Shown: in pieces, positions 56,894 to 59,873 of the stretch
How the letters are laid out: every line of letters starts with the position of its first letter
How positions within the stretch are numbered: the stretch's first letter is position 1
Origin: an uncultured virus (IMG/VR IMGVR_UViG_3300046524_000185)
Taxonomy: Duplodnaviria; Heunggongvirae; Uroviricota; Caudoviricetes
Reading direction: 5' to 3' (one strand)
DNA: 64,000 nucleotides
Virus record (IMG/VR): IMGVR_UViG_3300046524_000185
Notes under the pieces: generated by a model
Databases searched by the model: none
Told to the model about the DNA's origin: nothing
What the model saw: the letters and a program-made list of their open reading frames with translations, nothing else
Program-made: the position numbers and the translations under genes

Positions 56894-57568
56894 ATGCCGG
56901 TTATTGCCGTTGCAAACCCGAAGGGTGGGGCAGGGAAGTCGACGACGACCCTCGTTCTTGCCACCACACTGGCCGCTCAGGGTGCCAGCACCATCATTCT
57001 CGACTGTGATCCGAACCAACCAATCACCGGCTGGCGTAGCGGATCGTCGAAGAACGCCGTGATCGTCGACGGCGACGTGAACGAGAGCAACATCACTTCG
57101 AAGCTCGACGAGTACCGAAAGAAATTCCAGTTCGTGTTCGTCGACCTTGAAGGTGTCGCCAGCCGTCTGATGTCGCGAGCACTCGCTCGAGCCCAGCTGG
57201 TGGTCATTCCAATTCAAGCCAGCCCGACCGACGCCGAGCTCGCCGCCAAGGCCATCCGCCTGATCCAGGAAGAGGAGCAGGCATTCGAGAAGCGGATCCC
57301 GTACCAGATCCTGTTCACTCGAACCTCTCCGGTGATCGCCACCAAGCTTGAAAAAGCAATTCTGGCGCAGCTGAGGGGAGGGGAGGTGCCTTCCTTCAAC
57401 AATCACTTGAACGAGCGTGCGGCCTACAAGTCCATGTTCTTCCATCAGCTCGATCTCGACGAGCTCGACCCGCAAGAGGTCAACGGCGTGCCCCAGGCCC
57501 GCGAGAACGCCCTGCGTCTCGCTGAGGAGCTGGTCAACACCGTGGTCCAGAAGCAGGAGGCAGCATGA
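56894..57568 (+). CDS. parA: ParA partition ATPase (short, type Ib)
   Basis: [10 protein letters not shown] deviant Walker A, DCDPN, FVDLEG; no N-terminal HTH. Confidence 0.9.
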
Positions 57569-58138: not shown

Positions 58139-58145
58139 TTCAACG

Positions 58146-58177
58146 AAGCCCTGGCCCCCGCCGGGGCTTTTTCTTTT
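58146..58177 (+). terminator. Intrinsic terminator
   Basis: AAGCCCTGG...CCGGGGCTTTTTCTTTT. Confidence 0.7.
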
Positions 58178-58187
58178 GGAGAGAGAA

Positions 58188-58448
58188 ATGAACCTCTACT
58201 ACCTGAGCGGAACCAACGAGGAGGGCGAGGACTTCTCGCTGCACGTCGTCGCCCCGAACATGTTCCAGGCCCACGCCATGTGGAAAGAACACTGGGAAGC
58301 GACTTTCTTCCTCGCATCACCAAGCCACGGCTCACCGAACGCCAAGGTCGAGGACAAGCTCCTGATCTACGAGATTGTCTACGAGCCTGACACGGCCGGC
58401 GTCGTCGAGTGGGGCAGGGACGCCATGATCGTGGGATACGTGGAATGA
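58188..58448 (+). CDS. Hypothetical protein
   Basis: GGAGA SD; 86 aa. Confidence 0.55.
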   Translation: MNLYYLSGTNEEGEDFSLHVVAPNMFQAHAMWKEHWEATFFLASPSHGSPNAKVEDKLLIYEIVYEPDTAGVVEWGRDAMIVGYVE

Positions 58449-58609
58449 GATTTGTGATCTGGAACCTGAGCCAGCGGAAGTATGTCGCGCCGCTGGGGTT
58501 GAAATCGAGCTACACCCAGTTCATCCATAAGGCACGAACGTTCCCGACTCGCCAAGCCGCTGAGGCGGATTGCTGCGGCGACGAACGAGTTCGCGAGATT
58601 GACGGCTAA
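58445..58609 (+). CDS. Hypothetical protein
   Basis: ATGA-coupled; SSYT.....AR.F.TR.AAEA..C..E. Confidence 0.5.
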   Translation: MRFVIWNLSQRKYVAPLGLKSSYTQFIHKARTFPTRQAAEADCCGDERVREIDG

Positions 58610-58692
58610 GCAGACGCACCCTGCCAGGTGCATCGGGGAGGATAGGCCACCCCGACCAGGCGAAGGCCTCGCCGTCATTCTGGAGGTGAACT

Positions 58693-58782
58693 ATGTGGTG
58701 GATACCATTTAGTTTCACGCTGACGATAAGGAAAACCCGCACGAGCTGGCAGGCTACCGTGCGGGTGTCATTCCTTAGCTAA
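58693..58782 (+). CDS. 29-aa peptide MWWIPFSFTLTIRKTRTSWQATVRVSFLS, type I toxin-like candidate
   Basis: Strong GGAGGTGA SD; structured flanks; downstream anti-SD at 58818-58826. Too short for the ORF track. Confidence 0.55.
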   Translation: MWWIPFSFTLTIRKTRTSWQATVRVSFLS

Positions 58783-58849
58783 GCAGTAAATGGGAGGCAG
58801 GGTTCGCGCCCTGTCTCTCACTCCAGCTCCCAATATAATCCCCCATCTC

Positions 58850-58880
58850 AGCCCTGACAACTGTCGGGGCTTTTTCTTTT
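58850..58880 (+). terminator. Intrinsic terminator
   Basis: AGCCCTGACA-AC-TGTCGGGGCT-TTTTCTTTT. Confidence 0.7.
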
Positions 58881-58890
58881 GGAGAACCCG

Positions 58891-59091
58891 ATGCTGCCAT
58901 CAGCAGTGCATTTCGAGGGTAGGGGCTTTGGCAAGTTCCACTACCGCAAGCTGGGCTTCCGCCCGCCGAAGAAGGGCGAATTTTACCTGAGCGGCGCAAT
59001 CGTTCAAGCGTATCGAGCCCCGAACGACCTCTCGACGCCGTACCACGTCGTCGAACCAACCGCTGAAGCTTACAAGCTGGTGAGAGCATGA
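58891..59091 (+). CDS. Hypothetical protein
   Basis: R.PKKGE.YLSGA...AYRAPNDL; GGAGA SD. Confidence 0.6.
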   Translation: MLPSAVHFEGRGFGKFHYRKLGFRPPKKGEFYLSGAIVQAYRAPNDLSTPYHVVEPTAEAYKLVRA

Positions 59092-59324
59092 CTAAGAAAC
59101 TCGACCTCTACAAGACCCAGTTCCTTTTCGAGACCAATGGTCTGTCCCAAACAATCAGGATGTACCGGCGTAAGAACGCCACCGTGCTCTTTGGCAAGAA
59201 TGGCCCGATCCGGAGGATCTCTTCATTGGAGTGGCAGGCACTCAAGAAGAATTTCCCAGAGGAAACGAAAGCAGATGGTCTTTACGTCAAAAACGTTTGG
59301 ATGCTTGAGGAGGTTGCAGCGTGA
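59088..59324 (+). CDS. Hypothetical protein
   Basis: ATGA-coupled 78-aa ORF. Confidence 0.5.
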   Translation: MTKKLDLYKTQFLFETNGLSQTIRMYRRKNATVLFGKNGPIRRISSLEWQALKKNFPEETKADGLYVKNVWMLEEVAA

Positions 59325-59518
59325 CCGTTTGCCCACGATGCGACGACACAGGCCTCGCAGACAGCGGCGGCTCGCACCCTTGGGGTGAGCCGATCTCGAT
59401 CCCCTGCGACTGCAAAGAAGAGCCGGATTGCTTCGACTGCATTGGGCTGCTGCTGCAAACAGGCATCTGCTTCTGCGATAGCCAGGGCGTGCCGAGGGGA
59501 GGACCAGGCAATGACTGA
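59321..59518 (+). CDS. Cys-rich small protein
   Basis: CPRC..TG, CDC, CFDC, CFC. Confidence 0.5.
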   Translation: MTVCPRCDDTGLADSGGSHPWGEPISIPCDCKEEPDCFDCIGLLLQTGICFCDSQGVPRGGPGND

Positions 59519-59873
59519 TTTCATCAACACGCTCGAGCTAAGCGTCCGAGCCGGCAACCTGCTGCGGAACAACGGTATCACAACCGCTGAGCAGTTCCTC
59601 GAGATCACCTGGTCGATCGTGAAGAAGTGGAAGGGTGGTGGGCAACGCACATGGTTCGAAATTCTCGATCTGCAGCGTTATGTTCACCGCGAGCTCAAAG
59701 AGCAAGAACGACAGCGGCGCCGCGAAACCTTGCCGGGGAGGGCGCTCATTGCCCTCCGCACGCTCAACGAACTCCTGCCCGAGCTGACCGACAAAGGATG
59801 GTTCGTGCGCCAGGATCCCAAGGGTAACTACCGGCTCGCTCGGTACGTCGTGACGGAGGATCTCGATGGGTGA
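59511..59873 (+). CDS. RNA polymerase alpha-CTD-like (HhH) domain protein
   Basis: INTLELSVRAGNLLRNNGITT...GGGQRTWFEI resembles alpha-CTD LELSVR..N.L...I......G.KS..EI; GGAGG SD. Confidence 0.7.
   Translation: MTDFINTLELSVRAGNLLRNNGITTAEQFLEITWSIVKKWKGGGQRTWFEILDLQRYVHRELKEQERQRRRETLPGRALIALRTLNELLPELTDKGWFVRQDPKGNYRLARYVVTEDLDG

Follow-up and report, generated by a model that had tools for sequence, protein, structure and literature searches.

In the hok/sok system of plasmid R1, a small open reading frame (ORF) lies on a stable folded mRNA whose start is closed by 5'-3' pairing and which is activated by 3' trimming, and a short cis-antisense RNA is produced from a strong promoter; the system occurs on plasmids and prophages, often in several copies. 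In par/Fst-RNAII (pAD1), txpA/RatA, bsrG/SR4 and SprA1/SprA1AS, which are Gram-positive systems with hydrophobic helical toxins, the toxin mRNA and the antisense RNA are convergent and overlap at their 3' ends. To our knowledge, type I toxin-antitoxin (TA) families have been described from few lineages and almost all of them encode helical membrane peptides, a hydrophobic transmembrane (TM) helix being carried by nearly all known type I toxins. The present analysis concerns a 64,000-nt stretch of DNA, hereafter the window, from an uncultured virus of the Caudoviricetes (IMG/VR record IMGVR_UViG_3300046524_000185), in which an element at positions 58597-58880 encodes a 29-aa peptide that a preliminary description had placed in a type I TA-like RNA architecture.

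Like hok/sok, the element combines a small ORF with a highly folded mRNA whose start would be closed by long-range 5'-3' pairing, and it is carried by plasmids and prophages, often as several copies; activation by 3' trimming is proposed here, and a short cis-antisense RNA is predicted. It differs from hok/sok in its product, a predicted 29-aa beta-hairpin in place of the ca. 50-aa membrane helix of Hok, in the position of the predicted antisense RNA, which covers the 3' untranslated region and the adjoining half of the ORF instead of the 5' leader, and in its hosts, which are Alphaproteobacteria. With the Gram-positive systems named above it shares a predicted convergent arrangement overlapping at the 3' end of the gene, but the predicted antisense terminator is internal to the ORF and separate from that of the mRNA, which also uses a distant anti-Shine-Dalgarno (anti-SD) sequence.

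In type I systems the Shine-Dalgarno (SD) sequence is sequestered either locally or by a distant anti-SD, as stated in passages of PMC8594479, and that paper and PMC5416894 present the distant form, together with 3' processing and loop-loop antisense binding, as known type I features, the long-range SD-sequestering helix being a hallmark of hok and aapA1 mRNAs. For aapA1/IsoA1 of Helicobacter pylori, which encodes a peptide of ca. 30 aa and whose family was discovered via its mRNA structure, PMC5416894 describes a full-length mRNA made untranslatable by its fold, 3' processing that renders it translatable, and two stem-loops that allow a kissing-loop contact with the antisense RNA. Set against this description, the element resembles aapA1/IsoA1 in peptide length, in a fold that would close the SD and in two stem-loops available for antisense contact. 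It departs from it in that IsoA1 faces the 5' portion of the toxin gene while the RNA predicted here faces the 3' portion, in that the peptide types are unrelated and in that the present element is known from sequence alone.

Coding frame and messenger RNA fold

The features of the mRNA strand are as follows.

58597-58880, plus strand: the element, flanked by the small plus-strand ORFs 58445-58609 and 58891-59091
58693-58782, plus strand: 29-codon ORF, product MWWIPFSFTLTIRKTRTSWQATVRVSFLS, stop codon TAA at 58780-58782
58682-58686, plus strand: SD sequence GGAGG, 6 nt upstream of the ATG
58600-58677, plus strand: leader domain, made of P0 to P3 with a loop-loop contact
58600-58606 with 58671-58677, plus strand: P0, closing stem of the leader (RNAalifold), absent from the preliminary description
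58608-58613, plus strand: invariant AAGCAG of the leader
58616-58631, plus strand: P1 hairpin, with the loop CUGCCAG in the window (RNAalifold and pair counts)
58633-58655, plus strand: P2 hairpin, its loop containing GGAGGAU and AGGCC (pair counts in 40 sequences)
58659-58673, plus strand: P3 hairpin (pair counts in 40 sequences)
58644-58648 with 58665-58669, plus strand: pairing between the P2 and P3 loops (covariation)
58680-58685, plus strand: CUGGAG of the SD region (58680-58686), 5' strand of the SD:anti-SD helix
58821-58826, plus strand: anti-SD CUCCAG, 3' strand of that helix (RNAalifold; also in the minimum free energy, MFE, fold of the window)
58680-58689 and 58818-58826, plus strand: complementary stretches CTGGAGGTGA and TCACTCCAG
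58735-58743 with 58758-58766, plus strand: P4 (58735-58766 overall), 9-bp stem within the ORF over codons 15-25, loop CUGGCAG
58791-58820, plus strand: P5, 13-bp hairpin directly after the stop codon, abutting the anti-SD

The ORF is judged, from its pattern of substitutions, to be a real translated gene under purifying selection. Its 29-aa frame, SD and ATG are retained in all 11 blastn relatives, and copies in further blastn-derived loci encode 28-30 aa in 15 cases out of 15. Among 46 raw matches to a search pattern taken from the start of the ORF, 42 encode 29 aa and two 28 aa, the exceptions being L027, in which the stop is lost and the end of the contig truncates the frame, and L048, which is frameshifted; the starts of these matches are given by construction because the pattern demands an ATG. 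The alignment used hereafter holds 40 rows. Of the 45 distinct sequences, those left out are L012, which comes from the record that also gave L011, then L027 and L048, and finally two rows of L042 near-identical to L030. Across its 87 coding columns there are no gaps and no in-frame stops, compared with 14-126 stops in the five other frames, and the ratio of nonsynonymous to synonymous change (pN/pS) is 0.45 in the ORF frame versus 0.85 and 1.33 in the other plus-strand frames and 0.60-1.41 over all five. Summed entropy at codon positions 1, 2 and 3 is 20.5, 15.1 and 28.1, so that the third position varies most, and synonymous spread extends to all four codons at Thr9 and all four CGN codons at Arg16. 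The ATG is invariant in the alignment and the GGAG of the SD occurs in 38-39 of the 40 sequences.

The RNA itself folds far more stably than expected, with RNAfold giving -129.4 kcal/mol for 58597-58880 versus -96.3 +/- 4.6 in 200 shuffles (z = -7.2), none of which folds as stably. RNAalifold on the alignment returned 39 pairs, 24 of them with double-sided changes, that include P0, P1, P4, P5 and the SD:anti-SD helix. In a 58-pair model, 91.6% of cells are paired versus 35-43% when the 3' partners are slid; double-sided changes affect 33 pairs and none of 500 shuffles matches any of the five measures. The ORF with its SD, the three leader hairpins, the stem in the ORF, the hairpin after the stop and the terminator proposed in the preliminary description were all recovered where it had placed them, with helices that covary in the 40 relatives, and the conservation of structure in homologs that it had proposed as a check was observed. 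These data indicate that the fold is under selection and, with the SD sequestered by a covarying long-range helix, they bear out the type I-like RNA architecture.

Pairing between the SD region and a distant complement, one of the two modes of SD sequestration in type I mRNAs, was found here as the SD:anti-SD helix, in which 89.6% of cells are paired. The CUCC of the anti-SD is invariant and the flanking pairs covary, with UA 17 and CG 15 at pair 125/277 and CG 18 and UA 8 at another. Helices extend past GGAG:CUCC by 1.70 bp on average versus 1.08 +/- 0.12 bp for permuted partners, none of 1000 permutations reaching 1.70; in this test the script scored the second CUCC of the window row, for which a reading by hand gives a helix of 6 bp. 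The longer match first proposed thus stands for its 6-bp core, CUGGAG:CUCCAG, but not for its other 3 bp (UGA with UCA), which overlap the base of P5, show no double-sided change and are paired in 75% of cells. With this covarying helix the ribosome-binding site would be closed. Another helix, formed locally by the SD spacer and codons 8-9, was also considered, since it belongs to the MFE fold of the window, and was rejected with 69.5% of family cells paired and almost no covariation.

Within the leader, double-sided changes occur in 8 of 9 pairs of P0, 5 of 5 of P1, 4 of 6 of P2 and 2 of 4 of P3. Covariation is clearest in P0 (CG 22 and UA 16 at pair 27/120; GC 18 and AU 17 at pair 32/116), in P3 (GC 27 and AU 12 at pair 104/113) and in the contact between the P2 and P3 loops (GC 35, AU 5 and none unpaired at pair 82/111). 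P0 and P3 share three nt and therefore compete, and as both are supported by covariation this competition may reflect alternative folds. P2, the most conserved leader hairpin, bears the SD-like GGAGGAU at 58637-58643; this motif could serve as an alternative partner for the anti-SD CUCC or as a ribosome decoy.

In P4, pair 188/209 is GC in 23 sequences, CG in 15, AU in one and UA in one, and is never unpaired. P5 is present in 40 of 40 sequences as a perfect 10-14-bp hairpin (dG -18 to -30 kcal/mol) ending 0-2 nt before CUCC, the Earidi row having been read from the wrong CUCC by the script; its stem varies freely in sequence and its loops are mostly GAAA, GCAA or UCGC. In the window the loop of P1 (CUGCCAG) is complementary to that of P4 (CUGGCAG). 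Ser18 carries a synonymous C-to-T change in three sequences, and in all of them the two loops can still pair, twice through a compensating change and once as G-U.

Searches against Rfam gave nothing at gathering score in the window and no match at the loci of 18 relatives, and a tRNA/tmRNA scan of the window found no gene. The Betaproteobacteria toxic small RNA RF02278 aligned with 58812-58878 at 20.1 bits (gathering score 50, E = 0.58), a match limited to a C/U-rich stretch and the terminator hairpin, with none of the conserved element, and the locus was not regarded as a member of that family.

The candidate antisense RNA and the peptide

The minus strand holds a strong candidate for the antitoxin RNA, which the preliminary description had not found. 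Its predicted signals, with the sense terminator that overlaps them, are as follows.

58832-58860, minus strand: antisense promoter, -35 TTGTCA at 58860-58855, 17-nt spacer, -10 TATATT at 58837-58832 (consensus scan)
58755-58734, minus strand: terminator-like site, the P4 complement followed by UUUUCCUUAU (58734-58725) (terminator scan)
58825 to ca. 58725, minus strand: predicted antisense RNA of ca. 100 nt, placed from promoter and terminator, starting ca. 7 nt past the -10
58850-58871, then a T-run (to 58880), plus strand: sense intrinsic terminator, 9-bp stem followed by UUUUUCUUUU, overlapping the antisense -35

The window promoter is of sigma-70 type and matches 10 of 12 consensus positions. 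At the aligned place, 40 of 40 relatives present TTGnnn and a TAnnnT-like hexamer, separated by 17 nt in 33 sequences and by 16 nt in seven; the TTG and the A of the -10 were demanded by the script and are fixed by construction. The spacer sequence is not conserved (at most 0.52 bit per position). A distance of 1-7 nt separates the end of the -10 from the complement of the anti-SD, which would place the transcript start at or within that complement. The transcript would then comprise the P5 complement, a linker of 25-30 nt that spans the stop codon, the complement of P4 and a U-tract, and is predicted to fold into two hairpins (-41.3 kcal/mol, z = -3.2). The U-rich run after the P4 complement has 4-7 U per 10 nt in 40 of 40 sequences, and it is kept by codons 13-14 (Arg/Lys), which are purine-rich (AGG, AGA, AAA, AAG). 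The loop of P1 has the same sequence as the loop of the predicted antisense terminator.

The peptide, with the consensus MWxLPFSITLTxRKTRTSWQxxVRVQFxx, is invariant at M1, P5, R16 and R24 and has a net charge of +3 to +5. Two runs of 8-9 residues, in which hydrophobic and polar residues alternate, flank a basic turn, and the hydrophobic moment is 0.81-0.97 for a beta periodicity versus 0.21-0.26 for an alpha periodicity. The best 19-residue Kyte-Doolittle mean over 36 peptides is 0.09 (range -0.20 to 0.52) and therefore no membrane helix is present. An AF2 model of a natural 46-residue read-through relative (L027:7-144:-), built with 27 family rows and speaking for the family and not for the exact peptide of the window, places strands at residues 6-14 and 19-27 with a predicted local distance difference test (pLDDT) score of 68.9. 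The peptide is thus modelled as a cationic amphipathic beta-hairpin without a TM helix, in agreement with the beta-hairpin-like character first proposed for it. Judged by shape, its likeliest action would be membrane damage by beta-hairpin oligomers or nucleic-acid binding.

Neither Pfam, NCBIfam and PHROGs, searched with the window peptide, nor PADLOC, searched with 36 peptides, returned a family up to E = 10; no profile of Hok/Gef, Fst/Ldr or another named type I toxin family matched, and a profile search of the PDB gave no match. A hydrophobic TM-helix peptide, which is usual and not universal for type I toxins, was not found here. With no match to a profile or covariance model and no helix, the element belongs to no named type I family. 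The literature search, which left subscription journals and supplementary files outside its scope, found nothing relevant for the peptide motifs or for type I systems in Rhizobiales, and the main text of the T1TAdb paper (PMC8594479) contains neither 'Alphaproteobacteria' nor 'Rhizob'.

Relatives and mobility

A blastn search with 58400-59100 against 50,697 phage and 72,556 plasmid records matched only the intergenic element (ca. 250 nt) and not the flanking genes. It returned 13 phage records, corresponding to 115-122-kb Rhizobium phages, Ochrobactrum phage POI1126 and a freshwater phage, and 19 plasmid records, mostly Sinorhizobium conjugative plasmids with others from Shinella, Pararhizobium, Rhizobium, Ensifer and Brucella. 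In 31 of these 32 records no annotated feature lies beneath the match, the remaining one carrying no annotation, and in the ten regions inspected the element sits in a gap of 170-800 nt between unrelated hypothetical genes. The tBLASTn check proposed in the preliminary description gave peptide matches in 14 plasmid and 13 phage records, with an annotated feature under the match in only one. In the freshwater phage record MW462191.1 (which includes L005), the peptide matches at three places, one of which lies under an annotated hypothetical protein. In POI1126, the annotated 37-aa CDS gp29 (L007:873-986) overlies the structured leader and is probably a mis-call; the conserved 29-aa ORF of this phage (L007:992-1078) is unannotated.

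The ORF-start pattern further detected 8 viral contigs and, in contigs representing one genome per species, 25 loci that belong to Rhizobiaceae, Phyllobacterium, Mesorhizobium, Xanthobacter and one bin labelled Sphingomonas. In the nearest virus record (G001) the element is present at 73% identity. Among sequencing runs, a search with the stretch listed 24 DNA runs, mostly from rhizosphere metagenomes and 11 of them possibly the source of the window, and no RNA run. A pattern based on the P4 stem matched three viral loci that are not relatives and were dropped. Taking Sinorhizobium kostiense (G003) as reference, a match was found in 29 of 300 genomes from its family (Rhizobiaceae) and in 10 of 401 from its order. 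Genomes carry at least 1-5 copies, two candidates having been scored per genome in these samples so that copy numbers are a floor, and tandem arrays of 2-3 copies with a period of 295-410 nt are common. Taken together, these sequence comparisons point to an element that evolves as a unit, as a mobile and self-contained cassette.

Matches restricted to the leader, with 87-89% identity in distant genomes whose peptide differs, led at the level of the order to loci that have the same leader, SD, P4, P5, ACUCC and antisense promoter with a divergent peptide (for instance MSRRRWKLEVSLTKNAERWVITLRITFVI and MSRPRWKLEVALAKYADRWVITVRISFAR). These loci (L061-L069 and L076-L079, in genomes G326, G495, G527 and G583) encode peptides of 27-30 aa that share W19, T22, R24 and the alternating pattern. 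They are likewise multi-copy and tandem, and intermediate forms between the two peptide types exist.

The preliminary description had also placed the element near par. A ParA gene is indeed present in the window (56894-57568), but the flanking genes of the relatives are unrelated and differ in every one of them, so that a link to par was rejected as a family feature.

Possible function and neighbouring genes

The element is very probably a real small gene flanked by an antisense signal and subject to SD occlusion. As to its role, we lean, with little more than even confidence, towards a type I TA-like cassette of an undescribed family, self-contained and mobile. The full-length mRNA would form a stable and silent pool, and the minus-strand promoter would drive an antisense RNA of ca. 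100 nt with complementarity running from codons 12-29 through the stop codon and P5 to the anti-SD. Trimming of the mRNA from 3' to 5' would stall at P5, removing the anti-SD and opening the SD as in hok and aapA1, and the antisense RNA would pair with the opened mRNA starting from the P4 and P5 loops, leading to a block of translation or to cleavage of the duplex; in the closed mRNA the P1 loop may shield the P4 loop. Upon loss of the DNA or arrest of transcription, the antisense RNA would decay first, the peptide would be made and the cell harmed or arrested, so that a phage-plasmid, plasmid or prophage would be stabilised or an infection aborted.

A bolder version of this proposal, which we offer tentatively and rate as rather unlikely, is that the element represents a new class of antisense-controlled killer, with a soluble cationic amphipathic 29-residue beta-hairpin, and not a membrane helix, as an effector that forms beta-sheet pores or binds nucleic acid. 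The P1 loop would mimic the recognition loop of the antitoxin and hide the mRNA until trimming to P5 removes the anti-SD. The family, common to phages, phage-plasmids, conjugative plasmids and chromosomes, would then be the first of type I-like character in Rhizobiales and would combine a single RNA chassis with two or more peptide subtypes.

Several observations weigh against a TA role. No stretch of the peptide is hydrophobic enough to cross a membrane as a helix (best Kyte-Doolittle mean 0.09), and the modelled hairpin is of moderate confidence (pLDDT 68.9) and comes from the 46-residue relative, not from the window peptide. The contact between the P1 and P4 loops shows few changes (GC 32, AU 2 and GU 1 at pair 58/194), and the Ser-Trp codons confound it. 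Only in the window and in G001 is the element directly followed by a clear sense terminator, terminator-like sites being found further downstream in three other relatives. No consistently recognisable sense promoter was detected in the 40 relatives, a permissive post hoc pattern matching 23 of them but not the window or G001, which lack one because the upstream ORF ends inside P0. Finally, as the predicted antisense RNA would have the complement of the anti-SD at its 5' end, binding of this RNA could release the SD, so that translation would be activated instead of repressed.

The first alternative, possible although we do not expect it, is an antisense-regulated gene for a small protein that is not part of a TA pair, namely a benign accessory beta-hairpin of mobile elements that binds nucleic acid or a host protein. 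The peptide would then serve host takeover, exclusion or regulation, with the folded mRNA and the antisense RNA doing no more than setting timing and dose. A strongly basic peptide (+3 to +5) predicted to form a beta-hairpin without a TM helix would suit such a role, as would the position of the window copy, which has no promoter of its own inside a plus-strand operon of small phage genes, and the lack of any defence or toxin family match in Pfam, NCBIfam, PHROGs and PADLOC. However, the cassette moves alone among unrelated neighbours and onto chromosomes and forms tandems of 2-3 copies, which fits selfish or addictive modules better, and silencing at three levels, by an occluded SD, by an antisense RNA and by a strong antisense promoter, is typical of situations in which leaky expression is costly.

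It is improbable that the RNA is the main product, the leader acting as a regulatory or decoy RNA or as a switch sensing a ligand or protein, and the peptide being secondary or part of a dual function. Over the longest distances no other part is as conserved as the leader, which reaches 87-89% identity where the peptide differs, and its multi-helix junction, its covarying tertiary contact and the competition between P0 and P3 are what such an RNA might show; yet the peptide is under purifying selection and measures 27-30 aa in both types, neither the window nor the 18 relatives match Rfam, and there is no conserved downstream gene for the leader to regulate. An intergenic palindromic repeat or terminator cluster with a chance ORF, which the multi-copy, intergenic and hairpin-rich nature of the element might evoke, is hardly credible given a frame that stays free of gaps and stops in 40 sequences (the five other frames having 14-126 stops), a third codon position that varies most, all four Thr and Arg synonyms at fixed positions, a nearly invariant SD and an invariant ATG.

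Should the type I TA-like reading be correct and the pair be a true TA pair, type I systems would extend to nitrogen-fixing symbionts and their phages, a new effector fold would be added, and a compact RNA with many covarying long-range contacts would become available for the study of mRNA silencing. Rhizobial accessory plasmids and phage-plasmids could owe their stability to the cassette. It also represents a missing gene for annotators, as it occurs in about 10% of the Rhizobiaceae species genomes sampled and is unannotated in every phage or plasmid record examined except one with an overlapping 'hypothetical protein'.

Besides ParA, the window neighbours of the element comprise a peptidase, a glutaredoxin-like protein, a TerB-like protein and many small phage ORFs. 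Immediately upstream, ORFs 58188-58448 and 58445-58609 overlap by ATGA (58445-58448), which suggests translational coupling. The stop codon of the second (58607-58609) adjoins the 5' strand of P0 (58600-58606), the last three nt of which are the final sense codon of this ORF, and the cassette of the window phage would thus be read through from the upstream operon.

An identical 20-mer, GGGGCTTTTTCTTTTGGAGA, made of a terminator tail and an SD, follows two intrinsic terminators (58145-58185 and 58848-58893) and precedes ORFs 58188-58448 and 58891-59091, respectively; the second copy is also found in G001. The pair resembles a terminator/re-initiation cassette employed repeatedly between blocks of phage genes. 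Finally, the protein encoded at 59385-59873 has a domain resembling the C-terminal domain of the RNA polymerase alpha subunit (PF03118, E 2.7e-7) and could be a factor for takeover of host transcription.

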